DNA of 64,000 nt from an uncultured virus (IMG/VR IMGVR_UViG_3300047160_009708). Taxonomy: Duplodnaviria > Heunggongvirae > Uroviricota > Caudoviricetes. Position numbers and translations under genes: made by a program. How positions within the stretch are numbered: position 1 is the stretch's first letter; each line of letters opens with the position of its first letter. Location: the IMG/VR virus record IMGVR_UViG_3300047160_009708; one strand, 5' to 3'. Below, piece by piece: positions 2,333 through 60,924 of the stretch. The notes below the pieces were generated by a model. That model had not been told where the DNA came from. It searched no databases and worked only from the letters and a program-made list of their open reading frames with translations.

Positions 2333-2731
2333 CTAGGCCCGCTTCGGCTTGGGGTGCGCGTGTGCTTCCATCTTGATCACCGGACGCGCCTCGGCGCGGA
2401 GGGCGGCGTCGCGCGCGTCCATCTCGATCAGCGTCGCCTCGCGGGGATTGATCTGATTGTAGCTCTTATGCGGCCACACACGTACCACGGTCTGATTGTC
2501 CAGGCCAAGCCGATAGGTGATGTCCGCGTGCCACCAGGTCCCGCAGCGCTCGCGTAGCCCTTCGAGTAGTGTTTGCGTCGCGGCGGCACGGTCCGCGCTC
2601 GCCTTCTCAACCACCTTGCGGTGTTCATCACTGAGTTGGTTGATCGCCACGTTATCAACCATCAGGCGATCCGCCCGTGTGCGGGTTTCCACAGCGTTCA
2701 CCATCATTACGTTAGACACTTTCATGTTCAA
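2333..2731 (-). CDS. Hypothetical protein
   Basis: 132-aa ORF overlapping the end of the methylase gene. Confidence 0.6.
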   Translation of the reverse strand: MNMKVSNVMMVNAVETRTRADRLMVDNVAINQLSDEHRKVVEKASADRAAATQTLLEGLRERCGTWWHADITYRLGLDNQTVVRVWPHKSYNQINPREATLIEMDARDAALRAEARPVIKMEAHAHPKPKRA

Positions 2732-6307: not shown

Positions 6308-6321
6308 TGATGTGCCTCCTT

Positions 6322-45059: not shown

Positions 45060-46136
45060 TTATCCGAGCGCGTGGTTCATGAGGTAGCCGCTGTTGAAGT
45101 TGGACACAACCACCGTGAAGTTCGTGACCACGCGGCCACGGGTTAACAGGTTGTTGACGTCATGATATGACTGCACCGTCATGTCGTCCTGGCAGTAGAA
45201 CGTGAGGATGGTCGAGTAGGCGGGCGAGCCGCCCACGCCTTCGAGGACGCCAATGCGCGACGCCATGAGCACCACGCCGTCGGGTACGACGTAGCCGGTC
45301 GTGTCGGGCGTGGCGCCCTTCAAGTTGATATCAATGACCGCATCCTCGACCACGAACGGATGCGCGTAGAGCACGTCGGGACAGCCCCACATGCCATTCA
45401 AGGATTCCGAGTCGCCGCGCAACTGCGCCTGGACGAAGGGAGATCCTTTGATATAATCATGGATCTCCGGCGACTGGGCCATCTGATAGGCCGTGTTGGG
45501 ATTGACGATGACCGCCACGTCCTTGGGCTTCAGCACGCCCAACGTGTCCTGGTTGATCTTGATCATGCCCGCGTTGATCGCGATCTGAATGTTGGGGTTC
45601 GTGGACGAGCCGTTCTTGAAGTTTTGACCGCTGGGCAAGAGCGCCGCGTTGCCGTTGAGCGTACCGGCGCTGCCATCGACCATCGCGCAGTGCGTGTTCC
45701 AGTTGGCAGGCACGCCCCACTGGCTGTAGGCCAGCGCCGTGCGGCCGGTCATGGCCTGCTGCGCCACCATCTCGGCGTGCGCTTGCAGTACCGGCCAGTC
45801 GGCTTGACTGATCGTCATATCACCGAGCGTGAATGGGAACGCGTAGCGAATCGTCTCGTACTTGTTGTACTGGAACGATTCCAGGTTGTCCGCTCCGCTC
45901 GGCGCGTCGTTGCCGTCGCGCCACATGAAGTCGCGCAGGTCGTTGTTGTGAATACGCGCGGCCTGGCGGCTGGTCCAGGTGGCGTAGTAGCCGATCATGT
46001 TGGGCACCGGGAAAATCTGGCTGTACCGGTTGAACGCGAAATCCTTGGGATTGCGCGAGAAACCCGTGAGCAGCCCGCCCGTGGCCGCATGGTTCGGCAC
46101 GTAGACGTTGGTAACTTGAGGATAACTCGCTGGCAT
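45060..46136 (-). CDS. Major capsid protein
   Basis: 358 aa in the canonical position after protease/scaffold and decoration genes; composition fits an HK97-fold capsid protein. Confidence 0.8.
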   Translation of the reverse strand: MPASYPQVTNVYVPNHAATGGLLTGFSRNPKDFAFNRYSQIFPVPNMIGYYATWTSRQAARIHNNDLRDFMWRDGNDAPSGADNLESFQYNKYETIRYAFPFTLGDMTISQADWPVLQAHAEMVAQQAMTGRTALAYSQWGVPANWNTHCAMVDGSAGTLNGNAALLPSGQNFKNGSSTNPNIQIAINAGMIKINQDTLGVLKPKDVAVIVNPNTAYQMAQSPEIHDYIKGSPFVQAQLRGDSESLNGMWGCPDVLYAHPFVVEDAVIDINLKGATPDTTGYVVPDGVVLMASRIGVLEGVGGSPAYSTILTFYCQDDMTVQSYHDVNNLLTRGRVVTNFTVVVSNFNSGYLMNHALG

Positions 46137-46203: not shown

Positions 46204-47010
46204 TCACAGGTGGTAGAAGATGTAGAGCGTGCCAACCAGCGCGGTCGGCGTAGTACCGGTGGCCAACGTCCACGTCACCCAGCCACCTGGAGCAACTGGC
46301 AAGCGGCTCGTGCCAGTGCCAGCATCTTTGATGTTGTCGTAGACGACTGGCACCGCGCCAGCGTTCAAGGTGACACCGACGCCTTGCATAAGTCCGCCGT
46401 TTGCAGCCGGTGGACCAGGAGGCGCGGTTGTGCCAACTTGCAAGGTCGATGCAACGGCTGTTGCAGTCGTAATAAGCACCTCGATGCGATCGACAACGAT
46501 GGTCGTACCGGTGGTGTTCTGCCACGAGTTCACGTTGCCGGTCGCCAACGTGGTCGCGTTCAGTGGGAACTGAAGACTAGCCACGCCGCCGCCAGCGGTG
46601 CCGCCGCCGAACAGTTGAATCTGCACCAGGCCGACCTGGCCCGCCGGGACCGATTCGAGAGCGCGCGCGCCCACCGCCCCGGCGCCGGGCGTGATCGTCT
46701 GACCGTATCCCAGCGCGTCGGGACCGAGGAAGTCGCCCCGCGTCCAGCCCGCGCCTGATGGGTTGTTTTGCAACGAGCACACGTCGCCGATCACGAAATA
46801 CTGGATCGGCACGCCCGCGATGCCCGCGTACGCCGTGGACCCGGACAGACCGGGCGCGTCGTGCGTGCCGACCTGCGCAACCCCGAACACCGGATCGTTC
46901 AAGGCGCATTGCAACAGCGTCTTGTCCGCTGCGGTCGAGAGTTTGACAAACGACATGGGCAGGACGTTCCCGCCACACGTCAACGATGGAGGATTTCCAT
47001 AGCTGCTCAT
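46204..47010 (-). CDS. Capsid decoration/cement protein with a C-terminal extension
   Basis: FVKLS, VFGVAQ, GWTRGDFLGPDALG.G, VGARALE motifs; directly before the major capsid gene. Confidence 0.75.
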   Translation of the reverse strand: MSSYGNPPSLTCGGNVLPMSFVKLSTAADKTLLQCALNDPVFGVAQVGTHDAPGLSGSTAYAGIAGVPIQYFVIGDVCSLQNNPSGAGWTRGDFLGPDALGYGQTITPGAGAVGARALESVPAGQVGLVQIQLFGGGTAGGGVASLQFPLNATTLATGNVNSWQNTTGTTIVVDRIEVLITTATAVASTLQVGTTAPPGPPAANGGLMQGVGVTLNAGAVPVVYDNIKDAGTGTSRLPVAPGGWVTWTLATGTTPTALVGTLYIFYHL

Positions 47011-47065: not shown

Positions 47066-48730
47066 TCAGGCGCGCTGGCCCATGCGCCGCGCGTCAAGCT
47101 TGGCCGCCAGGTACGCCCGTACCGCCTCGGTGTGGTTGTCGATCTTGTTGGCGCGGCTGTAGCGCACGATCGCCTCGGAGTCTTCCGCTGTGAGCGTGTC
47201 GGCGATGTCGCCCTCGGTGACCGCCTCGGGCGAACGCACAAGATCCTGATCGATCGGGTCGCGGTGATAGCGCCTTTTGATGCGGTTGTAATGCTTGCCG
47301 TACTGCTTGTGGCTCATATCCACGCAGTCGTTCACTTCCTCCTCTAGATCGAATTGATATCCTTGCGCCAGCAGGTTGGTGAGGTCGCGCTCGATCGTGG
47401 CTTCCCGGTTGTACCGTTCAAGCTGCGCGATCCGCTTCTTCTGCTTGTCGTTCTCGGCCTGCATCCGCGCCAGGTCGCGCTGATAGCGGCTCTTCTGAAT
47501 ACCGGCTTGAGCGTTGCGCACGCGTCTTACCTCCTGTTCGTCGTCCTCGTCCTCGGCCCCCTCGTCGTCGCCGTCGCCAGGACCACCAAACGATTGGTCC
47601 TCATCCTCGGGCGCACCCTCGGGGTCCAAATCCTGATCGCCCATGTCCTCGTCATCGTCACGACCTTCGAAGTCGTTGCGGCGATGGCTCGGCTGGTCGT
47701 CCGTGTCGTCTTCCATGTCGTAGCGCGACCGGCGACCGCCGGGTACGAACGTGTTCGTACCGCTCGGTGCGCTGGCCTCGTACTTCGCGGGCTTCTCGGG
47801 CGGCGGGCCCGCCTGCGTTTCGGCTTCCTCCTCCTCGGGCGTCTCTTCCCCTTCGTACGGTTCCGGTCCTTCCTCCTCGTCCTCGGGCATCCCTTCCTCC
47901 TCGGGTGGCGGCCCCTCTTCCGGCTCTTCCTCGTCGCCCAGGACCGGGCCGCCCGCCGGACCCATGCCGCCTTCCTCACCCGAGTCGTACTTTTCCAGCT
48001 TGGCAAAGAGAGCCTTGGCAACACCGCTCGCCACGCCCTCGATGAGCGCTTTCATGTCTTCCGGTGCTAGTGGCATCGATTCCTCCTCGTCCGGTGTCGC
48101 GGAAGCGCCGCCTGGCTTGCCGCCTAACGGCGGGAAGTTCCGCGCGTACCGGAGTAGCACGGCATCTGGTGGCGGCTGGTCAATGCGGTGATCGTTGCGC
48201 GAGTAGTACATGATCCCGATGTCCCGCTCGGGCGCGCGCCGTAGGAGCGAAACACTGTCGATCAGGTTAAAATGAGCCTTCTGATCCGACTTGAGCCGTT
48301 CCACCGAACGGTGTGGATATTTGAGCGCGTCCTCTTTCTTGCGACGGTCGATGTGGAAGTCACAGTAGAGGCAGGGTGTGCCCTTGTAATCGCCGACAAC
48401 ATACCGGCTCGTGAAGCCGATCGGCTCGGGCTGCGCACTCTCCTTGCCGGTGTCGGTCGTGTGGCCGATCTGAATCTGCGGGAACGTGCCCCGCGAGATC
48501 CGGCGATTGGTGTTGTGGGCGATCAGGTTCAATAGCTCCTCCGTGATGTCGCCCTTGTCGTCGCTCGTTTCCTCCGAGTGATGCGCGTCTAGAATCGGAA
48601 CACCGGAGATGGTGAGAAAGCGCGACGGGTCGCGTAAATGCTCCTCACTGAGCATGCCAGCGTGGTGCGGCTCCGAGACGAGTCGCGGTTGCTCGCGCAT
48701 GACGCGGCGCGGTTGCTCGTGTAATGGCAC
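47066..48730 (-). CDS. Prohead protease-scaffold fusion (Mu gpI-like organisation)
   Basis: N-domain PQIQIGHT...EPIGF...YPHRSVE...IDSVSLL..APE (His/Ser protease-like), long acidic linker, C-terminal coiled coil. Confidence 0.75.
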   Translation of the reverse strand: MPLHEQPRRVMREQPRLVSEPHHAGMLSEEHLRDPSRFLTISGVPILDAHHSEETSDDKGDITEELLNLIAHNTNRRISRGTFPQIQIGHTTDTGKESAQPEPIGFTSRYVVGDYKGTPCLYCDFHIDRRKKEDALKYPHRSVERLKSDQKAHFNLIDSVSLLRRAPERDIGIMYYSRNDHRIDQPPPDAVLLRYARNFPPLGGKPGGASATPDEEESMPLAPEDMKALIEGVASGVAKALFAKLEKYDSGEEGGMGPAGGPVLGDEEEPEEGPPPEEEGMPEDEEEGPEPYEGEETPEEEEAETQAGPPPEKPAKYEASAPSGTNTFVPGGRRSRYDMEDDTDDQPSHRRNDFEGRDDDEDMGDQDLDPEGAPEDEDQSFGGPGDGDDEGAEDEDDEQEVRRVRNAQAGIQKSRYQRDLARMQAENDKQKKRIAQLERYNREATIERDLTNLLAQGYQFDLEEEVNDCVDMSHKQYGKHYNRIKRRYHRDPIDQDLVRSPEAVTEGDIADTLTAEDSEAIVRYSRANKIDNHTEAVRAYLAAKLDARRMGQRA

Positions 48731-49015: not shown

Positions 49016-49157
49016 GCGGCCGGTCGAAGTCGTCGAGGTCGTCCTCGATCACGATCTCGCCGCGCTTGACGCACGCCAAGAGATTGGCCAGGCAGCAGTC
49101 CATCTCCCGCCGTTCCATCTCGGTATACGCGCTTACGAGTGAGTCCTTGCGTTTCAT
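48945..49157 (-). CDS. Small protein coupled to the polyprotein stop; candidate partner of the zeta-like domain
   Basis: ATGA overlap at 49154-49157; acidic stretch IEDDLDDFD. Confidence 0.55.
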   Translation of the reverse strand: MKRKDSLVSAYTEMERREMDCCLANLLACVKRGEIVIEDDLDDFDRPPKRARSSGSGRRSNRPARPGPRQ

Positions 49158-52100
49158 GGGCAACCCCCGCGCCCGCCCTTGTCCATCACCTTCGGCGCCG
49201 TGCCGAACGGGACGTCGTTGTCGAGCATGGTGTAGCAGTCCACCAAACCGCTCGCCTTGAGCGCCTGGTACGACTTCTCAGGACCGCCATTCATCAACGC
49301 AATCAAACCGGGTGGCACAAATCGCCCCAACTCTTGATGTAACTCTTGAGGATCGGAATAGCCGAATGCGTTCGCGGCGAATCGATTCCAGGCGCGGCTT
49401 GCATTCTTATACACGGGAAAGTTCACGTTGATCATGTGTAATTCGTAGCCAGCCTTGGCAAAGGCTTTTGCTTGTTTCATCATCGCATTGGGATCGCTAC
49501 CGGCGATGTCCATGATGATGTTGTGCCGGTTCTTGATCGCTCGCTTCATGATCGGTCCATACGTCAGCATGATGGATTCCGAGTGCAGGACATCGCCATT
49601 CCAGCCTTCGTATTCCGGGAACCGCGCGCGAATGTCATCGGAACTGATGGTTGTGAAACCGACGCCCAGCTTATGCGCCAGTGGCACGCCCACGGTCGTC
49701 TTGCCCGAACCGGGTCGGCCCATCATGAACACCACGATCGGCTTCTGGCCTGGCCGCGCCTTGGCGTCGGGATTGAGCGTCAATTGCAAGATACGCTTGT
49801 GCTCCTTCTTGCGATCGTTGGTCCATTTCAGCTTGCGGTAGGCATTGCGCCAGTCCGGGCTGTTGATGACCTTGGCCACGTCGGTGCCCGGCTGCGTGTG
49901 CTGGAAGACGGACCAGGACGAGCCCAGACCACCCGGTGCCGCCTTCTCGATCTGGTCCAGCTTGACCTTAAGCTGCTGATAGAGCGGCGTCGCCTCGACG
50001 TCCCGCACATAACGGTCAAGATCCCGCATGTCGGTCGCGGGCTTGATGGGCTTGGTGGCGGCTGCGGCCTGGCGATCGTCGGCGGTGACGTGCGTCGGCA
50101 AGGGCGCTTCGGAGATGCCTCGGAAGTACGCGCGCGTCTTGCCGAACGCGGACCGGGTTTCCTCACGCGTGCCCGTGCCCGGCCCTTGCTCAACCTGGGC
50201 GCGCTCGGCGGGCGTGGCGCGCTCCAGCGCTTCGGCGGGAATGAACTCGCCGCCCGTGAACCGCTTGCCGCCGATCGATACGCCGCCTGCGGGCGCATGG
50301 TGGACAGCGTAGCGCACGACCGGCCGATGCGCGCGCCCGTGCAGCACGCGCCGCAGCTTATCCCAGACCGTCTCGGGCACCGCGCGGCCGTGCCGGACTA
50401 GCGCTTGGGCTTCCGCTTGTCGTCGCGCGTAACGGGCCTTCCAGTCATAATCCCAAACGCTTCGCCCTCCCTGGTCACGTCCTTCGCCGGGCGGTACCCA
50501 GCGCGGCGCGTTCGGGTGGGATCGTTCGTACTCGGCGATGAAGGCTTCGTACTTGCGGTAGGCTTCTTCGCGGGTTGACGCCCCTGTGGGGAAGAATTCT
50601 CCGTGGCCACGACGCACCTCCGGTTGAATGTGGTACTGCTTCGCAACAGCGTGAACCTTGTCGCCCAGCTCGGACCCTTGATCGAACAGATAAACACGCG
50701 TGCCCTGGTCGGTTTCCTGCAAGGTCCGGAACGCGATCCCCTGCCGGTCCAGGCTCTTGCGCACCGACTCGGGATCGGCGGGCAGATCGAGGGTCCATAG
50801 CGAGTCTTTACCGCCTGGAGACGATAAGAACGGAATCACCGCCCACTGCTTGGCAATCCGACCCTTGATCGCCAGGGCATACTTCAACGTATCAAAATCC
50901 GTGACGTTCTCATAACGCGTGATGCTCGACGGCTCGGCGCCCGCTGTCTCACCCGCCGGTGCCCAGTCGCCGATGACGGTGACTGTCGTCCCCCTCAGCC
51001 CCAACTTCCGATCAATATCGCTCGATAGCTTGATCCACTTGTGTTGCACTTCGCCCTTGGCGCGCTTCCTGGCTTCGCGGTAGTCCAGGCCCGACTCGAC
51101 TTCGGGCGACACGAACCCCTCGGCCTCGGGTTGCGGGGCGCGCGGCTTGCTGGCCGCCGCGCCGTTGCCCTTGACCCTGGCAAATTCCCCTTTGTTTTCA
51201 GGCTGGCCGCGAGGGTGCTTTTCCGCGTCCCAGGCATAGCGCACGCGCTCCTGACGCGGCAGCAGCACACGCGCCAGACGCGCGTACACGTTCGAACGCA
51301 TATAGCGTTCCTTACCTTCGCCCTCGCTTGGCTTGGACTCGTCCAGCTCCTTGATCTTCGATTCCCAGCTTTTGATGTTGCGTTCGATCGTTTCGATGTC
51401 GCGCGGGCTTAACTCCTCCCGGATGTACGGGCGCGTGCCGCCACCGTGAATCCGGTACCCGGCCTTGATGTCCACCTTGCCCTTGCGAATCGCGAATTCC
51501 AGCTTCTCCTTGTGGTTGGCGATCCACGCCTTGGTCCCCATCATGTCGGTCATCTGCTTCATCATGTCGCGGACCGTATCGCCCTTGGTCTTGGTCCACC
51601 GGCTGATCACCGCGTCGGATGTGGACACGTCCTCATATTTACCATTGACGCTCCACCGCTTGACCGGATCGGGGTCGATCTTGCTGACAATCTTCTCGAA
51701 CTGCTTCTTGAGGTCGGCCTGCTTGGGGTCGGGATAGTTGGGCATCCCCTCCTTGAACCGCGCCAGCACCGCCTGCGCGTCGCGCACGAACTGGCGGTTC
51801 TCGGCCCAGACCGTTTCCTTGGCCACCCGCTCGCCGCTCTTGCCCTCGGCCTGAAAGTGGGTCACGCACTCCGAGCCGACCGGCAAGGTCCACTTTTTGT
51901 CATCATTCTGCAAGTGGTAGACATTCTTGATACTGGTGCCGCACAGCCCGCACGTACCACCCTCGCTGCCGCCGCCCTCATGCTTGTAGAGCGTTGGCGC
52001 TTCGCTGTACCCCTCGGGCATGTTGAACGTCGGCATCATGCGCGGCTGGCCGCGATCGTCCTCGGTCTCCGTCATGCCGGTGATTTCCACCGCCTTCCAC

Positions 52101-55100
52101 TCGTCCTCGCGCGTGCCCATGTGCTCCAGATTCTTGCGCACCGCCTCGGCATACTTCAGCTTGCCGCCCGCCGCCTTCTTGGCCTTCTTGGCCGGTTTCG
52201 CCTTGGCTTCAGCCGTGCCTTCCGCTTCGATCTTGGCCCGCTCCTCGGGGGTCGCCTGCGCCATCACCTCGGACGTGATGAACTCGCCGCCCGGATAAAA
52301 CTTGCCCCCGATCTCGACGCCGCCCTTGGGCGCGTGCTTTGCTTCATAACGCACACGCTGCACGTCGCCGTAGATAACCCTGTGCAGCCGCGCCCAGATT
52401 GAACTGCGGGCATACCGCATGCGAGGATTCCCACTGTCAAACGTGCCGATGTTATCGACCGCCTTCACCTGGCCGGGGTCAAACGCGATCCACACGCGGT
52501 GGCTGCGCGTGCCCATGTTGGCGCCGCCGATGTGCGTGATGCCGTCGTAACCGGCCTGCTTGATCAGATAGTTGGCGCCCTGCTTGCCCGCGATCTGCTC
52601 CAGCGCGAAGTACACGTCGTCACCGTTGGGCGCGCCGCGCGTGCGCGCGGCTTGTCTCAACTGATTGAGCGCGGTTTGTGCGCCCTTACGTATCTCGCGC
52701 TCGTCCGTTTCGTGCCCGCTGAAGTAGGACTTGCCCGCCGCCGCCCGAAACTCGGTCAAACCCTTGCCACGCGCCAGCGGCTCCACCAGCGCGCGGAGCG
52801 GATCGATGTCGATCGTCCCGTCCACGCGGAACGGTCGGCGAATGTTGAGGTACGACGCGTACAAGTGGCCTTCCACCTTGATCCCCGCCTGCCGCGCCAC
52901 TTCGGGGACATTGATGTTGTAAGGCTGAGCGCTGAGCGTCTCGTCAATTAAGTCATAGGACCAATGTGAGCCCTTGGGATCGCGGAATGCATCGATCATC
53001 TTCTGAGCATGTTCACGCTCGGTATCGCTCAGGTAGCCGCGCGATAACCGGGCCAGCGCGCTGCTGAGCGCCTCGCCCAACTTATCCTTGTCCGCCGGTG
53101 CCAGCTTGATGCCCTTCTGCGTGTAGCCGCGCTGCTTCAAGCGCTTCTCCAGGCCGGTCGAGCCCATCCACTTGCCGGTCTGACTGTCCTGATACGGCGG
53201 CCACAGCGTTTTGGTCGCCGCCCTGGCCTCCTCCTCGGTGCCAAACTCGCTCCACACCGGCACCTGCTCCCAGTCGCCTGCCGCAATCCCTTTGTCCTCG
53301 GTGTGGTAGAAGCCAGGCCCGTACAGGTTGACGCCGCTGTCGATCTTGGGATCGAATGCCTCGAAGAGCGCCTGGCTACCGTGGTAGGCCAGAATCGGCT
53401 TGCCGGTATTCTCGTCGCGCACGACCGAGGCTTCGACGTTGTACGTGTCCTTCGGTTCGCCGGTCTTGGGATGCACGACCTTCGATGCGTCCACCGGATT
53501 GTGTACCCAGTCGCCGAACCAGTTCGTGAACTCGGGCGAGCGCGTGCCCAGCTTGCGGTAGTCGCGCTCGGCCTGCATGCGCTGCGCGCGGGCCTGACCG
53601 GCCTCGCTCAGCGCCTTCGTGGGCGCCTTGCCCGCATGACGGCTCGCTGGCGGCTGCGCGGCCTGCTGGCCGCCGCGCTCGACCGCCGCGCGCTCCTCGG
53701 GCGTCGCCTGGGCCATGACCTCGGACGGAATGAACTCGCCGCCGGGGAAGAAACGACCGGCAACCTGCACGCCGCCCTTGGGCGCGTGCCTTGCTTCATA
53801 ACGCACCAGCCTGGCCAGCCGCGCGTACACCGACCGCTTAACGGTTGAGCTTCTGGTCCCAGATGCGATCGAGGATTTTTTCGTCCTCGGGCGAGATGTC
53901 CGGCTCCTCGTAACGGTGCTCCCGATGCCCCTCCCGTACCGGCTTGTGCTTGCCTCGGTCGGGTACGCCGCCGCGTGAATCGCCGGATTGGTCACGCCCT
54001 CTTTGTGCAGGAGGTACGCGTCCAGCGTCTTGAGACTGAGGCTGCCCGGCTTCATGTCGAACGTCATCTCTCTGCTGTCGCCGTTGATTTCCCACCAGTC
54101 CCTCCCTTCTTGAGTTGCCATCAGGTCGCTAACACGTTTCGCACCTTTAAGGTCGTCCGGTAGGCGCTTGATATCCCAACTAGAGAAGGTATCATCATAA
54201 CCCATCTTGGGCCAAACCTTGTAGCCGACCATCGGATGATTGGGGTCGTCGTCGCGCGCCGCGACCGTCTCGATTTCCTCAATCCCCAGCTTCATCGCCT
54301 CCTCGACCTCGTGCGCGAAGACCGTATGACCCATCCCCTTGCGCTTCAGGTCAGGGTCCTCAATGAAGAATTCGTCATTATGTAATATGAGAGTACCAGC
54401 ATACTGCGAGTCAAGCGTGCGCTTCATTTTCCAGCTTGGCGCGCCGCGATAATCGGTGGGGCTATGCGCCTCGATGACAATCGCACCGAAGAGTCCTTCG
54501 CTTAGCTGGACAGTCGCGTCATCGGGCGCGCCGATCAGGGTCGGCAGGTCAGCGGCGGTGATCGGCAGCTTCAATTGCTTCAGCTTGTCCTCGATGCGCC
54601 CCTTGTCCCCGGACACGATCCGGCCCTTGCTCTTGTACTTGCCTGCGGGCTTAGCTGTCGCTGGCGGCTCAGCGGTCGCCGTCGCGCCCCCCTTGCCTTT
54701 CTCGATAAACTCACCCTTGTTCTCAGGCTGCCCGCGCGGGTGCAGCTCCGACTGCCAGGCGCGGGCGTAGCGCAGCAGCTTGGCCCGCCACGGATTGCGA
54801 CGGTTGCGCTCGAAGCCCGGCATGAGCATCTGGCCGGGCGCGTCGCGCCGCACGCCGTGCTCCTTGTTCCATTGCTTGATATACTCATTTAATGTCTTGC
54901 GGCTCTCACTATCCGGACGCGTGTCGAATTCCAGGTCGATGTTGCTGCCGTGCTCCTCCCACCACTCGCGACCGCCCGGCGTCTTGTACAACTGGCTGAT
55001 CATGATGGTGTCGTCGTTGCCGGGAAAGTCGCTCTTGTAGTGGACCCAGTCCGGTAGCTCGCCGTCGAACCCCAGCTTGGGCCAAACCTTGTAGCCGATC

Positions 55101-56563
55101 ATGAACGCGGACCGCGCGGCGGTTGTCGTGATCTTGCCGATCCCCGCGTTCCACGCCTCCTCGACCTCGTGCGCCAGCACGGTGTGACCCAGGCCCTTAC
55201 CCTGCGCGCTGCGGTCGTTGATGAAGAATCCCGCGTTATGGATAAAAAGATCGCCATCGTCATCGTGTTGAATCTCGCGATCCATAGTCCAAACGCTCCG
55301 TGTCGCGCCTTTGGGCGTTTGGTACGTCGCGGTACTCACCGCCGAGATGCCGATCTCGTCGTAGTTCGCGCTGATGTCCACCGTGGCGTCATCGGGGATT
55401 CCCAGCAGCGTCGGCAGGTCGTCGATGGGGATGTCAAGGTTATTATTCTCAAGCCAATCGCGGACCTCCTCATCATCCACCGATTTGATCTTGGCCTTGC
55501 TCTTGTACGTGCCGGGCTTGTCCCGCTTTTCGAGCTTCTCGGGCCACGGCGCGCCCTTGGTGGATTCCTTGGGCTGCGCTTGGGGCTTCTCCTTGGGCTT
55601 CTCCTTCGTGGCCGTCGTGCTGCCCGTGCCCCTGACGACGAACTGCCCTTTGTTCTTGGGCTGACCACGCGGGTGTAGCTCACTCTTCCATTCGCTCTTG
55701 TAACGCGTGCGCTCCTGCTCATACTCTACCCGGTTGTCTTTTGTGCTAAACGTGCCCTGGTTTAGTGTGGATTTCACCTGATTCGGATCGAATGCAATCC
55801 ACGAATCCTCCGCGCCGTACTTGCGGTATATCTCATCAGGCACGTCGCGATCGAGGAATCGTGCCCAGATCGGATCGCGATGCAGCGCGTCGAAATCAAT
55901 CTTGCCCTCACCGCGATTGGTGTAAACCACACCGTCATAGCCAGCACCACGAATCAGGGATTGGAGCGTCTGGTTCGACCACTTATGAAAATTGTCTTGA
56001 TCGTTGAATTCTATATGCTCCGCTTTGTCGCTCAATCCTGGCGGTATTTTGATCCCCAGCTTTTCGAGTTGTCCAGCGACGTCGCGGAAACGCCAAAAAC
56101 CCGCGTCGCGCAAACGCAGCGGATTCTCAATCCGCGCGTACAGCGGCATGATATGCTCATCGCCTGCTGCGGACGCATCCGGCCCCACGAATTGCTCGGC
56201 CTGCGCTTCAGTGCCCACATGTAAGCCCAAATCACCGACGTCCGGGTCCATCGTGCTCCAGTCGCCGCGCTTGGTGCCGTGGTAGACGACCATCGGCTTG
56301 CCCTGGGCATCGACCACCTTCGACTTGCCGAACCAGCGACGAAATTCCGGTGTGTCCGTGCGCGACTTACGGGCAGGCGCCGGCTTGTCTTTCACCGCAA
56401 CACCGCTACCGCTCTTGCCGTTGGCTTTAACGAATTCTCCCTTGTTGGCAGGCTGACCACGCGGGTGCAATTCCGATTTCCACTCACTCTTGTAGCGCGC
56501 GCGCTCGCGCCCGTAGAGCATGCGCGCCAGGCGACCGTAGATCGAGCCGGGGGCACTCGACAC
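49154..56563 (-). CDS. Large polyvalent protein: ART-like, GNAT-like, GNAT-like, ART-like, Zn-binding, unknown, zeta-toxin-like P-loop kinase
   Basis: FRRWFG..VYHGT..GYDG..WIAFDPNQVK (twice, second copy variant); GKGLG/RKGMG..AAR..GYKVWPK(L/M)G (twice); CGLCG..VGSEC; GRPGSGKTT..SSDDIR..IIMD. Confidence 0.85.
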   Translation of the reverse strand: MSSAPGSIYGRLARMLYGRERARYKSEWKSELHPRGQPANKGEFVKANGKSGSGVAVKDKPAPARKSRTDTPEFRRWFGKSKVVDAQGKPMVVYHGTKRGDWSTMDPDVGDLGLHVGTEAQAEQFVGPDASAAGDEHIMPLYARIENPLRLRDAGFWRFRDVAGQLEKLGIKIPPGLSDKAEHIEFNDQDNFHKWSNQTLQSLIRGAGYDGVVYTNRGEGKIDFDALHRDPIWARFLDRDVPDEIYRKYGAEDSWIAFDPNQVKSTLNQGTFSTKDNRVEYEQERTRYKSEWKSELHPRGQPKNKGQFVVRGTGSTTATKEKPKEKPQAQPKESTKGAPWPEKLEKRDKPGTYKSKAKIKSVDDEEVRDWLENNNLDIPIDDLPTLLGIPDDATVDISANYDEIGISAVSTATYQTPKGATRSVWTMDREIQHDDDGDLFIHNAGFFINDRSAQGKGLGHTVLAHEVEEAWNAGIGKITTTAARSAFMIGYKVWPKLGFDGELPDWVHYKSDFPGNDDTIMISQLYKTPGGREWWEEHGSNIDLEFDTRPDSESRKTLNEYIKQWNKEHGVRRDAPGQMLMPGFERNRRNPWRAKLLRYARAWQSELHPRGQPENKGEFIEKGKGGATATAEPPATAKPAGKYKSKGRIVSGDKGRIEDKLKQLKLPITAADLPTLIGAPDDATVQLSEGLFGAIVIEAHSPTDYRGAPSWKMKRTLDSQYAGTLILHNDEFFIEDPDLKRKGMGHTVFAHEVEEAMKLGIEEIETVAARDDDPNHPMVGYKVWPKMGYDDTFSSWDIKRLPDDLKGAKRVSDLMATQEGRDWWEINGDSREMTFDMKPGSLSLKTLDAYLLHKEGVTNPAIHAAAYPTEASTSRYGRGIGSTVTRSRTSRPRTKKSSIASGTRSSTVKRSVYARLARLVRYEARHAPKGGVQVAGRFFPGGEFIPSEVMAQATPEERAAVERGGQQAAQPPASRHAGKAPTKALSEAGQARAQRMQAERDYRKLGTRSPEFTNWFGDWVHNPVDASKVVHPKTGEPKDTYNVEASVVRDENTGKPILAYHGSQALFEAFDPKIDSGVNLYGPGFYHTEDKGIAAGDWEQVPVWSEFGTEEEARAATKTLWPPYQDSQTGKWMGSTGLEKRLKQRGYTQKGIKLAPADKDKLGEALSSALARLSRGYLSDTEREHAQKMIDAFRDPKGSHWSYDLIDETLSAQPYNINVPEVARQAGIKVEGHLYASYLNIRRPFRVDGTIDIDPLRALVEPLARGKGLTEFRAAAGKSYFSGHETDEREIRKGAQTALNQLRQAARTRGAPNGDDVYFALEQIAGKQGANYLIKQAGYDGITHIGGANMGTRSHRVWIAFDPGQVKAVDNIGTFDSGNPRMRYARSSIWARLHRVIYGDVQRVRYEAKHAPKGGVEIGGKFYPGGEFITSEVMAQATPEERAKIEAEGTAEAKAKPAKKAKKAAGGKLKYAEAVRKNLEHMGTREDEWKAVEITGMTETEDDRGQPRMMPTFNMPEGYSEAPTLYKHEGGGSEGGTCGLCGTSIKNVYHLQNDDKKWTLPVGSECVTHFQAEGKSGERVAKETVWAENRQFVRDAQAVLARFKEGMPNYPDPKQADLKKQFEKIVSKIDPDPVKRWSVNGKYEDVSTSDAVISRWTKTKGDTVRDMMKQMTDMMGTKAWIANHKEKLEFAIRKGKVDIKAGYRIHGGGTRPYIREELSPRDIETIERNIKSWESKIKELDESKPSEGEGKERYMRSNVYARLARVLLPRQERVRYAWDAEKHPRGQPENKGEFARVKGNGAAASKPRAPQPEAEGFVSPEVESGLDYREARKRAKGEVQHKWIKLSSDIDRKLGLRGTTVTVIGDWAPAGETAGAEPSSITRYENVTDFDTLKYALAIKGRIAKQWAVIPFLSSPGGKDSLWTLDLPADPESVRKSLDRQGIAFRTLQETDQGTRVYLFDQGSELGDKVHAVAKQYHIQPEVRRGHGEFFPTGASTREEAYRKYEAFIAEYERSHPNAPRWVPPGEGRDQGGRSVWDYDWKARYARRQAEAQALVRHGRAVPETVWDKLRRVLHGRAHRPVVRYAVHHAPAGGVSIGGKRFTGGEFIPAEALERATPAERAQVEQGPGTGTREETRSAFGKTRAYFRGISEAPLPTHVTADDRQAAAATKPIKPATDMRDLDRYVRDVEATPLYQQLKVKLDQIEKAAPGGLGSSWSVFQHTQPGTDVAKVINSPDWRNAYRKLKWTNDRKKEHKRILQLTLNPDAKARPGQKPIVVFMMGRPGSGKTTVGVPLAHKLGVGFTTISSDDIRARFPEYEGWNGDVLHSESIMLTYGPIMKRAIKNRHNIIMDIAGSDPNAMMKQAKAFAKAGYELHMINVNFPVYKNASRAWNRFAANAFGYSDPQELHQELGRFVPPGLIALMNGGPEKSYQALKASGLVDCYTMLDNDVPFGTAPKVMDKGGRGGCP

Positions 56564-56610
56564 TTACGCGCTCTCGTCCTGCATCAACTTGGTAAACAGC
56601 CGCGTCGGCA

Positions 56611-56823
56611 TCACGACCATCCCGCCAGCTTGAACGCGTCCAGACACTCGTCCGAACACACCGGGATCAGCCTCGGTCGGCCCGCGCCCCCTAACCGCCA
56701 CGTCGTATCACATCCACATGTGTGACAGGGCTCATGATCGTTCACGCGCCGCAGAAACTCATGCTGATGTAAGTCGATCACGTCCGTGTAGTTGGCGTCC
56801 GGGTACCGGTCGTCGAACTTCAC
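56611..56823 (-). CDS. Small zinc-finger-like protein
   Basis: CHTCG...VCSDEC; GTGA-coupled to 56820. Confidence 0.55.
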   Translation of the reverse strand: MKFDDRYPDANYTDVIDLHQHEFLRRVNDHEPCHTCGCDTTWRLGGAGRPRLIPVCSDECLDAFKLAGWS

Positions 56824-57095
56824 CGCTCGTTCTCGCGCGCCATCTTCGCAATGATCTTCTCGACCGCCGCCAGTTGCTTCTTGCTCTCGGGCGTCGATGG
56901 CTGCGGGTCGGGATACTTCAGCTTCACACGCTTCTCACCGGCCGGACGCACGTCGCCACCCAAGAGCAGCGTGCGCAGCTCACCGATCGCCCGCTCGCGC
57001 GTGAACCCGAACAGCTTTTGGAGCGCGGTCACGTCGTCCTCGGTGAACTTGCCGTCAGGCTGCGCCTTGAGGAATTTCATGCCTTCTTGATCCAC
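56820..57095 (-). CDS. Small 'MDQE' protein, paralogous to the N-terminus of 57077-58225
   Basis: MDQEGMKF..QPDGKFTE....L.K.FG.TRERAI.EL.TL..GGDVR; overlaps the upstream gene by 19 nt. Confidence 0.75.
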   Translation of the reverse strand: MDQEGMKFLKAQPDGKFTEDDVTALQKLFGFTRERAIGELRTLLLGGDVRPAGEKRVKLKYPDPQPSTPESKKQLAAVEKIIAKMARENER

Positions 57096-58225
57096 CCCAG
57101 TTTCATGAACATGCCATCAATCGCCTTGGCGATCGGTGCGAACTCGCGATCCGACCATTGGCCAGCCGTATAGAGCGGTTGGTGCCTCGCTTGGGTGTCC
57201 CGCCGGTAGTCGTTGACGTTTTTCATAATCGCCTCGTCGTGGGCGCGGGTGCCGACCCACTGCCCGAACGCGCGCGCCCACACTTCCGACTTCCTGGCCA
57301 TGTAGTCAATGTAGCGGTGAATCCACGCGTTGGTCAAAGTCACCGGTCCTCCCACGTCCATACGTGCCTTAGCCTTCATCAGATCCTTATACATGCGCGT
57401 CTTCTCAATCGCCGCGAACACCGGCGCGAAGTAGGGGTCGTGGTCATAGTCGCGATCGGGATGGTGCGGTGCCAGATTGACGCCCGGCACACCCACGCCA
57501 TCAAGCCAGTGACCGGTCTCGTGCGCGATCGCCAGGTAGGTCAGCCTGGAAAACGAATTGATCTCCAGGCTACTGCACGAGCCGTCATCCTTGAAGTAGG
57601 TGACCCCCTCATCGCCGGGCTGGCCCAGGAATTCCTTGACCTGGATCGGCGCCAGCTTGCCGTCCGACATAATGCTATCAATGGATTTATATGTCTTCTC
57701 GAACGCGGCGCGCTTGTCCTCCACGCTTTGGTCATACTTCACCATCGAGGACACCTTGGTCCCCTCGCCCGGCTGCACATGCACGTCCGCGACCGGACGC
57801 GCCACGCGCGGTCGGCGCGGCGGCTTGGGCGCTTCGGTCGGCGTCGGCGTCTCGGCTGGCTTGGCCGGTGTGGGCTCGGGCGCCGCTGCGGGTTTGGGCT
57901 CGACCGGTCGGGGCGCCTCTACGAGCTTGTGGCCGTTGCCCTTATCCGGCACCTTGGCGAACTCGCCCGCGTTCTCAGGCTGGCCCCTCGGGTGCTTCTG
58001 CTCGTCCCACCCCGACCGCGCGTACCGCTCTTTCGCTTGCGCCTTGGGCGGGAACGTTTCGCCCTTCCTGAGATAACGGACGTCGCCACCCTCGAACAGC
58101 GTCATCAACTCACGCACCGCGCGCGCACGCGACCAACCGAATCGCTTCATGATCTCCCGAATGCCCTTTTCGGTCGGCTTCCGGCCCGGTTGTGGCTGCG
58201 CGTACTTCACGGTTTCTTGATCCAC
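57077..58225 (-). CDS. MDQE domain + HPRG peptide + HExxH metallopeptidase-like domain
   Basis: ERYARSGWDEQKHPRGQPENAGEF; AHETGHWLD; EVWARAFGQW; paralogous to the portal C-terminus. Confidence 0.8.
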   Translation of the reverse strand: MDQETVKYAQPQPGRKPTEKGIREIMKRFGWSRARAVRELMTLFEGGDVRYLRKGETFPPKAQAKERYARSGWDEQKHPRGQPENAGEFAKVPDKGNGHKLVEAPRPVEPKPAAAPEPTPAKPAETPTPTEAPKPPRRPRVARPVADVHVQPGEGTKVSSMVKYDQSVEDKRAAFEKTYKSIDSIMSDGKLAPIQVKEFLGQPGDEGVTYFKDDGSCSSLEINSFSRLTYLAIAHETGHWLDGVGVPGVNLAPHHPDRDYDHDPYFAPVFAAIEKTRMYKDLMKAKARMDVGGPVTLTNAWIHRYIDYMARKSEVWARAFGQWVGTRAHDEAIMKNVNDYRRDTQARHQPLYTAGQWSDREFAPIAKAIDGMFMKLGWIKKA

Positions 58226-60924
58226 CCTAACTTCGTGAACATGGCATCAATCGCCTTGCCGATCGGCGCGAAATCCTCGTCCTGCCACTGGTCGGCAAGG
58301 TCGGGATTGCCCGCGCCCGGCTCGGGCTTCCAGGCGCGGTAGACGTTCAGATCCTTCATCATATCACGATCACGGCTGCGTGTCGCCACCCACTGCGCAT
58401 ACGCCCGCGCCCATACCTCGTGCGGCGCCAGCAGATAATCGACAAACCCCCCGAGATCATCCTGGCCGCCGCGCCCCTCCGCTTGCAGGTCGCGCCGCGC
58501 TTGATGAAGCGACTTGTACGCTTGCGACGCCTTCAAGGCCGCGAACACACCCTTAAAGTGTTCGTCGTGGTCGTAGTCGCGATTCTTGCCCATCTCGGTC
58601 CGGCCACCCGGTATGCCCACCGCGTCCAGCCAGTGCCCGCTCTCGTGCGCGACCGTCAACAGGGGATAATCCATTTTCGTGCTGAACATAATGCCGACCA
58701 CGTTGTCGTCGTTGTCGAAAACCGTCGCACCGGCCGCGCTCGTGCCCGGTGGCGCCGAGCCGATCACGATCGGGTACAAGTCACCGTCAGACATCAAGTG
58801 ATCCATAATTTGATATGTCTGCTTCACTTCATCCGAGAATGGGAAGTGGGCGTCCAGATAGTAGCGCACCGCCTTCGAGATCGGCGCGCCCTTGCCGGGC
58901 CGGAACAGCGGCGTGCCCGCGTCGCGGTCGGCCTTGGGCTTGGGCGGCTTCGCAGTCGCCGTCATGGACGTCGCGGTCGGCCGCGATTCCTGAGTGGATG
59001 CGGGCTTCGTCGGCGCCTTGGGCTCGGCCTTCGGCTGGGCGCCCTTGCCGGTCGTGCCGCCCTGCCGGGGCGCGAACTCGCCCGCATTCTCAGGCTGACC
59101 GCGCGGGTGCTTCGTCTTGTCCCAGGTCGTCGCGGCGTACCGCACGCGCTCGTGCCGCTGGCGCTCGACCACGGGTGGCGGCGCGCCTTCGCCCTGCCGC
59201 GCGTAGGTCGGCGGTCGGCTCAGCACGCCACCGGTCGCGTTCGGGCCGGGCGCCGTCCCACGTCGCGGCGCCTGGCCACCGAGCGCCATCCCACCGCCCG
59301 CCGCGCCCGCACCATTGCCACCGCTGGCCGGATAGGCGGCCTCGCCACCTGCCTGCGCGGGCGCGCCCTGGCCGCCCGGCATCATGCCGCCGCCCATCAT
59401 CTGCTGCTGCTGTTGCATCTGCTGCTGCTGCACCGCCGCCATGATCCGCTGCGCCCGCACACCGAGCGCCTCGTCATCCTTCTTGGGCGACTTGAACCCG
59501 CCCAACTTGAGCACGTCCGCCTCGGCCAGCGTGCCGCCCATACCCACAATCAGCTGACCGGCCTGCAACCGCTCCAGCATGTTGGGCGTTTCCAGAATGC
59601 TCTTGAAGCGAATCTGGAACGGGAGTTCATATCCAGATAGGACCTGATCTCCATACCGCCAGTGATTGAGCCGAATCAGCGGACCCAAAAGCTGGTCCGT
59701 GATCGTCTCGTCCAGCGAGGTCGCGTCCGACCGAATGCGAATTGCCTCGACGTTGCCGCTGTACTCAATCGCCGACTCAGTGCGCGCGCCACCGGCACCC
59801 ATCACCATCGATTGCTCGTTGATCCCCAGGATGTCGTACTCAATGATCGAATCGAAGTATTGCACCCACTGGTCGAACACCGGATAAGCGGCGGCTGATG
59901 CCTCGATGTGATGAATGTTCGACTGCGGATCGCCCTGGCCCGGCTGCTTGGGCATCACGCCGACGTTGAAGTCCACGACATCCTTCACCGCCTGAATCAC
60001 CGCCTGGCGGTCGGCCATGTCGCCCGACTGATAGAAACCAATGAGCATACCATTCACACTCAAGCGCTGTAATGCGTTCATCGCCCAGGAGAGAACCTCG
60101 GTGCGAATCCACCACTGGTGATAGACGCGAGACCGCATGCCGATGCCGTAGATCGCGGCGGCCATGTCGGCCTCATACTGGAAATCGGTGTCGCGCGGTT
60201 CGAAGGTGTGGATGACGAACTGGTCGCGGTCGGCGGCGTCGGTGAGAAAGAGCGCCATGCCGCGATCGGCGAGTTGGATAAGCTCCGACTTGCCGAACGG
60301 GCGATAGTCCGGGAACACAAAGATGCCTGGGGTCCCGTCCCACTTCCAGACAATTTTGTCCCCTTGCAGGGGTACATGCTTCTTAACGACAACACGGGAT
60401 ACGCCATTGACCATCTTTCTGGTATAAACGACCTGCACGCCCGCCTTCCCGAAGAAGATCGCTTCCAGCAGCGAGTTGCGCAGGTCGTAGAAGCGCGGCG
60501 TCGCCTTCACCAGCCGCGTCACCTCCTCGGCGACCGCGATCTGGTACGGGTTCTCGGTGTCGTCCGGCTCTAGCTCCCAGTCGAGCGACGCCACCGGCAG
60601 CTTCCGCCGCGTCATCAACTTATCAATGAATGCGTCACGCCGACATGCGAGCGCATCCGTCCAGTTGACACGTGTCGCTTCGTCGAACCACGTCCGGAAC
60701 GTTTCGCTGACCGTGTTGTAGATCGCCGCCCATTGCTTCTCGGGCGAGATCACATAGCGGTCTAATTCCGGGATGCCCTGCTGATGCAGCCGCCGACCGG
60801 ACAGTAGCTCGGGGAGCGCCGAGTCGGGGATCGTGGACGCGACCTGACTGAGTATCTCAGCCACGCCCTCGATGGCGCTCTGGCCCAGGGTCGGTCGATT
60901 TTCAGGCTCGATGTCTTGCGTCAT
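58207..60924 (-). CDS. Portal protein (DUF935/Mu gp29-like) with a fused C-terminal HExxH domain
   Basis: RRKLPVASLDWELEP, LLEAIFFGKAGVQV, YGIGMRS, LDETITDQLLGPLIRLN; Q/G-rich linker; AHESGHWLD. Confidence 0.85.
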   Translation of the reverse strand: MTQDIEPENRPTLGQSAIEGVAEILSQVASTIPDSALPELLSGRRLHQQGIPELDRYVISPEKQWAAIYNTVSETFRTWFDEATRVNWTDALACRRDAFIDKLMTRRKLPVASLDWELEPDDTENPYQIAVAEEVTRLVKATPRFYDLRNSLLEAIFFGKAGVQVVYTRKMVNGVSRVVVKKHVPLQGDKIVWKWDGTPGIFVFPDYRPFGKSELIQLADRGMALFLTDAADRDQFVIHTFEPRDTDFQYEADMAAAIYGIGMRSRVYHQWWIRTEVLSWAMNALQRLSVNGMLIGFYQSGDMADRQAVIQAVKDVVDFNVGVMPKQPGQGDPQSNIHHIEASAAAYPVFDQWVQYFDSIIEYDILGINEQSMVMGAGGARTESAIEYSGNVEAIRIRSDATSLDETITDQLLGPLIRLNHWRYGDQVLSGYELPFQIRFKSILETPNMLERLQAGQLIVGMGGTLAEADVLKLGGFKSPKKDDEALGVRAQRIMAAVQQQQMQQQQQMMGGGMMPGGQGAPAQAGGEAAYPASGGNGAGAAGGGMALGGQAPRRGTAPGPNATGGVLSRPPTYARQGEGAPPPVVERQRHERVRYAATTWDKTKHPRGQPENAGEFAPRQGGTTGKGAQPKAEPKAPTKPASTQESRPTATSMTATAKPPKPKADRDAGTPLFRPGKGAPISKAVRYYLDAHFPFSDEVKQTYQIMDHLMSDGDLYPIVIGSAPPGTSAAGATVFDNDDNVVGIMFSTKMDYPLLTVAHESGHWLDAVGIPGGRTEMGKNRDYDHDEHFKGVFAALKASQAYKSLHQARRDLQAEGRGGQDDLGGFVDYLLAPHEVWARAYAQWVATRSRDRDMMKDLNVYRAWKPEPGAGNPDLADQWQDEDFAPIGKAIDAMFTKLGWIKKP

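Follow-up and report, generated by a model that had tools for sequence, protein, structure and literature searches.

The seven-unit gene

The stretch analysed here, referred to as the window, is 64,000 nucleotides of DNA from an uncultured virus of the Caudoviricetes (IMG/VR record IMGVR_UViG_3300047160_009708), and the gene of interest is one uninterrupted open reading frame (ORF) on its minus strand, 49154..56563, that starts with GTG and encodes a polyprotein of 2469 amino acids (aa). The polyprotein follows one plan seven times over, each unit consisting of a helix-RY junction, a conserved tag of 17 to 34 residues, a flexible Gly/Ser/Ala/Lys/Pro-rich linker and a cargo domain. An original prediction, made from the letters alone, had proposed this seven-unit layout and two types of tag, and both are borne out, with four copies of type 1 and three of type 2 in the one ORF. 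Judged by its domains and its setting it is a phage polyvalent protein, a known kind (Iyer 2017, PMC5512222), and the tags appear to be two widespread families of short motif that are new; on balance each tag is read here as a signal that would bring its own unit into the phage head, in the manner of a capsid-targeting sequence (CTS). Functional statements throughout rest on sequence and context. The gene, its tags (found by motif scan) and its junctions (found by sequence pattern unless stated) are as follows.

49154..56563, minus strand: polyvalent protein gene, seven tag-plus-cargo units (single ORF, in-frame Pfam domains, GTG abutting the upstream TAA)
56492..56545, minus strand: N-terminal helix-RY element, residues 7-24, SIYGRLARMLYGRERARY (resembles the internal junction helices)
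56432..56482, minus strand: type 1 tag, unit 1, residues 28-44
55640..55690, minus strand: type 1 tag, unit 2, residues 292-308
54707..54757, minus strand: type 1 tag, unit 3, residues 603-619
53798..53833, minus strand: helix-RY junction, SVYARLARLVRY, residues 911-922
53687..53788, minus strand: type 2 tag, unit 4, residues 926-959
52346..52417, minus strand: RY-helix-RY junction, residues 1383-1406
52235..52336, minus strand: type 2 tag, unit 5, residues 1410-1443
51236..51307, minus strand: RY-helix-RY junction, residues 1753-1776
51182..51232, minus strand: type 1 tag, unit 6, residues 1778-1794
50309..50434, minus strand: RY-spacer-helix-RY junction, residues 2044-2085
50198..50299, minus strand: type 2 tag, unit 7, residues 2089-2122 (the relative P0065 has type 1 there)

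The Pfam domains of the polyprotein all lie in one frame and are spread along its full length. The GTG (56563) comes directly after the TAA of a small upstream ORF and is preferred over the ATG called 14 codons later in the database copy (P0002), both because of this abutment and because the N-terminal helix that it encodes resembles the helices of the internal junctions. The database copy forms a singleton cluster and lies on a 77-kb contig; when the whole gene was compared with cultured phages, as DNA and as protein, only distant single-domain matches came back, with <40% identity and covering <=9% of the query.

Type 1 tags read W-x4-HPRGQPxNKG[EQ]F, with the Trp at residues 28, 292, 603 and 1778 and the His codons at window positions 56467, 55675, 54742 and 51217, and type 2 tags read HAPxGG-x9-GGEFI-x8-ATPxERA, with the His at residues 926, 1410 and 2089 (codons at 53788, 52336 and 50299). 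A six-frame scan of the window found two extra type 1 copies that the original prediction did not contain, one in the portal gene (His 59109) and one in a 382-aa gene (His 57994), both behind RY; the remaining HPR[GD] matches of the scan, three on the plus strand, match no further part of the motif and are read as chance. Residues 1766-1813, in leader 6, are matched by PHROG profile 113, a portal profile, as would be expected if tag-bearing portal fusions belong to that PHROG family.

Of 24 residues in leaders 1 and 2, 21 are identical, but the codons differ at 11 of these 21, and the other leader pairs are alike in this. Conserved peptides with differing codons show that the tags are kept by selection on the peptide and are the result of neither chance nor recent DNA duplication, and a tag kept in every unit by purifying selection is a sign that each unit may act on its own. 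The same evidence bears on the alternative that the tags are mere DNA recombination joints, left by module shuffling and without a function as peptides. Such joints would fit with the shuffling of cargo modules between phages and the swapping of tag types at one position, but peptides that are conserved while their codons diverge, with the frame and the invariant residues kept in the 299 copies from very different genomes described below, make this alternative very improbable.

All seven tags were said to stand behind RY, and they do, with RY found 1-3 residues before the Trp of type 1 and 3 before the His of type 2. An amphipathic helix was also claimed before the RY of most leaders; a helix of the form S[IV][YW][AG]RL.R.. 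or TVWDKLRRVL stands ahead of five of the seven tags, whereas leaders 2 and 3 are without it and leader 3 has merely NPWRAKLLRY. Four junctions have a second RY before the helix or spacer, giving the order cargo-RY-helix-RY-tag. Compared with 2000 shuffles, RY is in excess in the polyprotein (13 where 6.3 are expected, P=0.0045) and in its 554-aa neighbour (7 against 1.7, P=0.0015), and it is mildly enriched in the portal (4 against 1.8) and the 382-aa protein (3 against 1.1), with just one of 17 other ORFs of the window, p693, enriched at P=0.018.

The junction does not always accompany the tag. The nearest long relative, P0003 (3894 aa), has one HPRG tag and nine 'Y-helix-[DE]RY' elements at domain-size spacing, so that the helix, which thus recurs outside the window, and its RY form an element separate from the tag. 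Among 299 tag copies collected from other proteins RY lies <=7 residues upstream in 35, compared with 1.5% of random 7-mers; the pairing of RY and tag seen in all seven leaders therefore does not hold in general, and by this count RY marks a sub-family of tags, not the whole family. In ART-PolyVal polyvalent proteins without an HPRG tag (P0006-P0036) each ART domain ends in a conserved 'GN.G.FD..NPDIR[FY][SA]', and the 'NRVEY' and 'NPRMRY' of the window stand at the same end position, so part of the RY signal belongs to the C-terminus of the ART domain.

Cargo domains

The seven cargo domains are listed in the order in which they are translated.

55757..56311, minus strand: cargo 1, ART-PolyVal, residues 85-269 (PF18760, E 4e-13, 50.8 bits against a cutoff of 31.2)
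54794..55576, minus strand: cargo 2, paralogue of cargo 3, GNAT-like at best (42% identity to unit 3)
53939..54646, minus strand: cargo 3, paralogue of cargo 2 (42% identity to unit 2)
52409..53557, minus strand: cargo 4, ART-PolyVal with an insertion (PF18760, E 1.5e-12, 48.9 bits against a cutoff of 31.2, in two stretches)
51299..52156, minus strand: cargo 5, Cys-rich domain (visible Cys/His pattern, CxxC...CxxH)
50429..51121, minus strand: cargo 6, tandem ferredoxin-like alpha/beta domain (AlphaFold2 model, pLDDT 88, pTM 0.83)
49247..49756, minus strand: cargo 7, zeta-toxin-like P-loop kinase (PF06414, E 1.6e-18, 67.3 bits against a cutoff of 22.3)

Two ART domains and a zeta-like kinase had been proposed, and all three stand above the Pfam cutoffs, with the Walker A loop GRPGSGKT visible in the kinase. 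The proposal that units 2 and 3 are GNAT-like is a weak lead: Acetyltransf_1 matches cargo 2 below threshold (E 0.09, 13.5 bits against a cutoff of 20.7) and does not match in Pfam when units 2 and 3 are scanned alone, a Q/RxxGxG-like stretch is visible, and the Atlas clusters nearest to cargo 3 are unnamed, one of them (at 0.90) having Acetyltransf_1 in 20% of its members. Unit 5, proposed as a Cys/Zn domain, is Cys-rich as described and matches no Pfam or NCBIfam family at E<=0.1; homologues are found in P0080 and in P0110, where the domain sits after a type 1 tag. Unit 6, for which no function had been offered, has a confidently predicted fold and no convincing structural relative, as its model gives no Foldseek match at E<=0.001 and its best VIA-align score (Z 7.9, a level that the tool calls common) is to generic ferredoxin-like arrangements; 24 local homologues were found.

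Distribution of the tags across phages

A type 1 profile built from the six copies in the window was searched among 1.84 billion cluster representatives and matched 597 proteins at E<=1e-3, 69 at E<=1e-10 and 4 at E<=1e-30, three of those listed being the window's own. Copies were called by regular expression in the 147 top-listed non-window matches of the 597, and 143 of these 147 proteins contain 299 copies, between 1 and 16 each: 52 proteins have one copy, 65 two, 17 three, 2 four, 4 five, 1 six and two giants 16 each. The giants, P0071 (5313 aa) and P0080 (7334 aa), carry a shorter variant, WDExKHPRGEHG[RK][WF], often directly after the 'GNxGxYDPKDxRIxFS' end of an ART-PolyVal domain.

Such repetition invites the alternative that the protein is never cut, like the N4 virion RNA polymerase, and that its tags are multivalent 'stickers' for each other or for a single shared internal component, condensing the tagged head proteins into an internal body around which the shell forms. 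Proteins with 2-16 copies and low-complexity spacers would suit this, tags that bind themselves would need no co-evolving receptor, so that their invariance across head types fits, and tagged portal and DUF2213 proteins could nucleate the internal body. With a single copy in 52 of the 143 proteins that match the regular expression, we nevertheless think it unlikely that the tags work in this way.

Among the 226 copies of the commonest length the consensus is [WF][DEN]E-S-K-H-P-R-G-Q-P-E-N-[AK]-G-[QE]-F-[AGVST] followed by a Gly-rich stretch, with H, P, R, G, N, G and F present in 100%, a value that is partly forced as the copies were chosen by similarity. The residue after the invariant Phe is A, G, V, S or T in 95% of the 226, and in the 25 residues after the tag G, S, A, P, K and T make up 62%, compared with 44% for the whole proteins. 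Successive tags lie a median of 291 residues apart (n=156), about one domain, and 37 of the 299 copies start <=30 aa from the N-terminus whilst 6 end <=30 aa from the C-terminus, some of these in proteins that look like fragments. The N-terminal bias, the linker and the domain-size spacing together point to a tag-linker-domain layout, as first proposed. Scans of the tagged units assigned the tag to no family, in Pfam at E<=1 or in NCBIfam at E<=0.1. A role in DNA binding of the AT-hook kind was considered and rejected, the motif consensus being net acidic.

Pfam was run on 50 tag proteins, 48 from elsewhere and two from the window. Portal domains were found in four (one of them the window's), MuF in one and DUF2213 in four, and the cargo comprised Topoisom_I (7), InPase (5), ADPrib_exo_Tox (5), ART-PolyVal (4), NUDIX (3), Zeta_toxin (2), LPD1 (2) and others once each, with no Pfam family in 19 of the 50. 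The tag is seen at portal-cargo junctions, after DUF2213, and before topoisomerase IB, NUDIX, ART, zeta and InPase domains. The exact type 2 pattern occurs in 14 viral stretches (some of them duplicates), three of which lie in ORFs that also have type 1, and a word-based search for type 2 gave 5 proteins at E<=1e-3 among 18 candidates; its architectures include Portal_Mu with Zeta_toxin, Portal_Mu with topoisomerase IB, ART-PolyVal and ADPrib_exo_Tox.

An exact DNA pattern for HPRGQPxNxG[EQ]F, with an estimated chance expectation of <1 match in 596 Gb, was found in at least 153 stretches of viral contigs and in 13 stretches of species-representative genomes. The latter belong to Christensenellaceae and other Clostridiales, Abditibacterium, Gemmata and other Planctomycetota, and metagenome-assembled genomes of Paceibacterota, Rhizobiales and a gammaproteobacterium, so that the hosts span at least Bacillota, Planctomycetota, Abditibacteriota, Patescibacteria and Pseudomonadota. 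Fourteen tagged loci with 133 ORFs were then compared, a set that is not random, as it holds 8 viral loci chosen for having several tagged genes and 6 of the 13 genome loci, with two further loci dropped only for size. All 14 have a terminase, portal, MuF, DUF2213 or capsid gene within 6 kb, and between them they contain three portal families (Portal_Mu, Phage_portal_3, Phage_portal) and two capsid families (Major_capside, Phage_capsid).

The breadth of hosts also bears on the possibility that the tags act in the host after injection, either docking effectors to a conserved host component or keeping enzymes inactive until the tags are removed. An invariant core is compatible with a conserved cellular target and the cargo consists of host-directed enzymes; against this, the hosts span at least five phyla, portal and DUF2213 proteins, which are structural and not effectors, are tagged as well, and the tagged genes are confined to head modules. 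Such a role is considered improbable.

Stand-alone units

The original prediction also held that the units had formerly been separate genes, and the homologues found elsewhere fit with this. Units 2/3, 4, 5, 6 and 7 all have homologues behind the same tag in other proteins, some of which stand alone. Unit 6 follows a tag in P0172 and P0187 and the zeta kinase does so in P0134, tag-unit 6-tag-zeta is found in P0054, P0065 and P0179, a tagged domain of the unit 2/3 kind occurs twice in P0060 and P0077, unit 5 follows a tag in P0110, and unit 4 lies between two tags in P0050. Homologous domains lacking the leader had been named as something that would count against the idea; this was checked, and the outcome did not refute it. 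Units 6-7 are collinear with P0065 (32% identity over 730 columns), and the tag between unit 6 and the kinase is of type 2 in the window but of type 1 in P0065; either type can thus fill the same position.

Several phages also have their tagged genes in rows, each separate gene starting with its own tag, with three such genes in locus L051, two in L084 and two in L021. Before these stand-alone tags there is just a short strand-like stretch, for example M-x-T-I-D-I-N-Y-[IL]-D, in place of the x-V-R-Y of the window; as this equivalent of the RY stretch forms the very N-terminus, there is nothing there to cut off. A tagged stand-alone gene on the viral contig L051 (5041-6171) weakly matches PF07737 (E 1.6e-6), a metallopeptidase family named after anthrax lethal factor, and so adds another kind of cargo to those that follow the tag. 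Unit 6 has a further setting, as a unit-6-like domain lies between two tags after DUF2213 in P0052 and its relatives and in L084:1620-3143, L021:1-1299 and L019:6261-8489; the unit 6 of the window is thus also the middle of an apparent protease/scaffold gene in other phages. It was considered as a universal tag receptor and rejected, being found in only 12 collected proteins and 18 loci.

These layouts matter most for the reading in which the tags are mainly processing or release sites, where a conserved head protease cuts beside the motif, at the RY upstream or after the invariant Phe, and frees cargo from the portal and the units from one another, with targeting achieved otherwise; in DUF2213 proteins it would free the N-terminal domain from what comes after. 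A tag at portal-cargo junctions, right after DUF2213 and between every pair of units is where a release site would be placed, the small residue (A/G/V/S/T) after the invariant Phe in 95% of the 226 copies is in keeping with it, the constancy of the motif from phage to phage would follow if the specificity of the protease is conserved, and there is a parallel in the pre-toxin domains of polymorphic toxins, which have been described as possible processing sites (PMC3482391). However, 37 of the 299 copies lie <=30 aa from the N-terminus, some after just 3-11 residues, stand-alone single-domain proteins keep the tag with nothing to separate, an invariant motif of 17 aa is long for a cleavage site, and no protease family is common to all 14 tagged loci examined. 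Release as the main function of the tags is therefore thought rather unlikely.

The head-gene neighbourhood

The genes around the polyprotein that bear on its setting are the following.

58207..60924, minus strand: portal (Portal_Mu, PF06074, E 2.2e-32), with a type 1 tag at 59074-59124 and a C-terminal LPD1-like HExxH domain
57077..58225, minus strand: 382-aa protein in the MuF position, with a type 1 tag at 57959-58009, a Pro/Ala-rich linker and an LPD1-like HExxH domain
47066..48730, minus strand: 554-aa candidate protease/scaffold in the position of Mu gene I (synteny with Mu)
45060..46136, minus strand: 358-aa ORF in the position of the major capsid protein, by synteny alone (upstream of the gp36-like adaptor)
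44478-45023, minus strand: Mu gp36-like adaptor

On the minus strand the order is portal, 382-aa protein, three small ORFs, polyprotein, 554-aa protein, 268-aa protein, 358-aa protein and Mu gp36-like adaptor. This matches the order in phage Mu, which is gp29 portal, gp30 MuF, G, the I/Z protease-scaffold, T capsid, gp35 and gp36, and by this synteny the polyprotein is in a Mu-like head-morphogenesis module. Packaging in the head had been predicted, and the location, here and in all 14 tagged loci examined, agrees with it.

The 382-aa protein matches phrog_4529, 'minor head protein and DNA pilot', at E 2.2e-9. Its LPD1-like domain and that of the portal fall below the cutoff of 27 for LPD1 (PF18796), with 21.9 and 17.0 bits respectively, and both have the HExxH (AHETGHW in the 382-aa protein, AHESGHW in the portal). 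The 358-aa ORF has no Pfam, PHROG or NCBIfam match and no relative in IMG/VR by peptide patterns. Between the genes in the gene I and capsid positions lies a Gly/Ala/Thr-rich protein of 268 aa (46204-47010) with no family match, placed where a decoration, cement or second scaffold protein might be expected.

The three small ORFs (56564-57080, minus strand) encode, in order, 86 aa, 70 aa that are Cys-rich, and 15 aa, and are chained by overlapping stop and start codons (ATGA, GTGA, TGATG, TAAGTG), which suggests that the genes from portal to polyprotein form a single operon with coupled translation. The middle of the 86-aa ORF resembles the N-terminus of the 382-aa protein (..GGDVR[YP]). No terminase was recognised in the window and most of its other ORFs have no PHROG match; at its far end are Mu Gam-like (5657-6406), RecT-like (4549-5616) and DNA methyltransferase-like (2712-3674) genes.

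Loading into the head and cleavage

The reading favoured here is that each tag docks its unit to an internal component of the head during procapsid assembly, as a capsid-targeting or cargo-loading peptide would. All that must enter the head with cargo would bear the same tag, including portal C-terminal fusions, LPD1-like proteins and the DUF2213 proteins, which we read as protease or scaffold. A head protease would then cut at or near the helix-RY junctions, leaving each unit with its own N-terminal tag, and the separated units would be ejected with the DNA. Packaging, the binding partner, cleavage, its site, the protease and injection are all inferred. A head-incorporation tag is favoured, as it explains most of what is seen: a tag before every unit, tags at the N-terminus of single units and at portal and DUF2213 junctions, the flexible linker that follows and the location in head modules.

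There are, however, several points that weigh against this reading. The core of the motif is invariant across three portal families, two capsid families and several host phyla, which is not easily reconciled with a docking partner, such as a capsid or scaffold protein, that evolves fast. Cargo at portal-cargo junctions is already tethered, so that a targeting tag there seems redundant and a release site fits better. Large polyvalent proteins can also go uncut, as with the N4 virion RNA polymerase (Iyer 2017, PMC5512222), and DarB is described as a 250 kDa protein in the P1 paper (PMC9024508). A tblastn search with two tag peptides against 50,697 cultured-phage records gave no match at E<=1; the sole match at E<=10, to gene 8 of Mycobacterium phage Refuge (E=7), which lies among tail and lysis genes, was judged to be chance. 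The redundancy in portal fusions and the invariance of the core favour a release-site role, a dual role like that in T4, or self-association of the tags.

A broader proposal is that the HPRG tag and its HAP..GGEF variant form a portable 'load into the head' code, used across many phyla and with any portal or capsid family. This is possible, although doubtful. If true, the near-invariant core would mean one conserved internal receptor or self-association of the tags, with portal extensions, protease/scaffold and effectors assembling together.

The protease of the original prediction was the 554-aa protein encoded next door, and we regard this protein as probably a protease/scaffold. Its layout is a conserved N-terminal domain (about 48131-48655), LLRY|ARNF, a very acidic region and a coiled-coil-like tail. 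Its gene lies between the one in the MuF position and the major capsid position, and its C-terminal part is scaffold-like, so the position and the acidic, coiled-coil-like tail support the identification, but a family match does not. One homologue of the N-terminal domain was found (P0038, 45% identical), and in both proteins an RY follows this domain (LLRY|ARNF and VIRY|CRDF). In the Atlas the protein resembles Mu-like_Pro clusters at 0.93, a language-model result that is a lead only, and an hhalign comparison with DUF2213 is collinear and weak, with a probability of 47% over 26 columns. Cleavage of the polyprotein at the helix-RY junctions by this putative protease is plausible. Telling against the cleavage part of the reading, the protein has no Pfam match (even at E<=10) and no PHROG, NCBIfam or PDB-sequence match, profiles of Mu-like_Pro, Peptidase_S78/U35 and DUF2213 do not recognise 47066-48730 (a local DUF2213 profile scores 0.7-2.5 bits), hhalign against Mu gene I finds no match (probability 0.1), and the AlphaFold2 model, at a pLDDT of 37, is unusable.

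The centre of the 554-aa protein is extremely acidic, with long Glu/Asp/Pro/Gly runs, and Lys, Pro and Ala abound in the linkers behind the tags of the polyprotein; the scaffold-like acidic region and these cargo linkers might match each other in charge. Processing might instead be the work of the two neighbouring LPD1-like HExxH domains, a zincin-like metallopeptidase having been proposed as the processing enzyme of polyvalent proteins (Iyer 2017, PMC5512222).

Significance and comparison with known systems

Proteins injected with phage DNA are the first move against host defences, and they are mostly unknown because they have no common signature. A conserved tag present on 597 representatives would serve as one. 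It singles out many candidate effectors that are as yet uncharacterised, and it makes the contents of the heads of uncultured phages, and the route by which they enter, a testable question. If the proposal of a portable code is true, sequence could directly reveal which effectors uncultured phages inject, and any chosen cargo could be loaded into phage capsids by adding about 30 residues. The tag may in this way prove a general handle.

Polyvalent proteins are defined by at least two disparate activities and by a place among virion and packaging genes. The polyprotein has two ART-PolyVal domains and a Zeta_toxin domain as well as four further units, two of them paralogous, and it lies with Portal_Mu two genes upstream and the gp36-like adaptor downstream. 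The proteins described by Iyer 2017 (PMC5512222) are likewise made of many enzymatic domains (ART, zeta-like kinase, InPase, NUDIX), sit beside portal and terminase genes, include portal and MuF fusions, and are predicted to be packaged, injected and proteolytically processed. The polyprotein differs in the addition of a tag and a helix-RY junction to each unit and in that the nearby HExxH domains are LPD1-like below threshold; a term search of the main text of that paper found no mention of the tag motif, and neither of two passages on repeats concerns one of this kind.

A functional likeness may exist to the CTS of phage T4, a short N-terminal peptide common to unrelated cargo (IPI-III and Alt) that directs it into the prohead and may be an evolutionary way to load varied proteins (PMC9026906). 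An N-terminal place on unrelated proteins of the head module is also found here, in the 37 of 299 copies near the N-terminus and in the stand-alone tag-plus-cargo proteins. The T4 sequence is about 10 residues long, is lineage-specific and is removed by gp21 at a defined site (PMC9026906). In contrast, the tag described here has 17-34 residues, is internal as well as N-terminal, is repeated, is followed by a flexible linker and is found in very different phages. Unlike a cleaved leader of the T4 kind, it would be left on each unit by cutting at RY.

Cargo-loading peptides of encapsulins are similarly short and conserved, have a flexible linker and dock enzymes inside a shell of the HK97 fold. 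Unlike the tag they are mostly C-terminal, single-copy and specific to an encapsulin family. In the giant phage phiKZ, which is related to SPN3US, cleavage motifs end in Glu, and we know of no RY or HPRG element in the processing of giant-phage ejection proteins. SPN3US itself resembles the present case in that its prohead protease cuts a large number of internal head proteins ahead of their ejection into the host, although its ejection proteins are encoded by separate genes and not as a polyprotein (PMC7411985, PMC10052503).

DarB of phage P1 is a polyvalent anti-restriction protein of 250 kDa whose first 30 residues direct it into the capsid and suffice to do so for a reporter (PMC9024508). 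It has one signal, specific to P1, on a protein that is apparently uncut, whereas here there is one signal per unit and the signals form a conserved family. Pre-toxin domains offer another parallel, being short conserved elements before variable toxin cassettes that have been proposed as processing sites (Zhang et al. 2012, PMC3482391). The same study predicts that MuF-fused toxins are packed into phage heads; the pre-toxin elements that it describes (PT-VENN, PT-TG and others) belong to secretion routes, and in the parts of it drawn on here none is listed for the MuF route. Literature searches with the strings of the tag motif gave no relevant paper, and those on MuF, polymorphic toxins, linkers and motifs led only to this general concept of pre-toxin domains (PMC3482391). 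Set beside these systems, what we rate as the new part is a signal resembling a capsid-targeting sequence that is conserved, repeated and common to very different uncultured phages.

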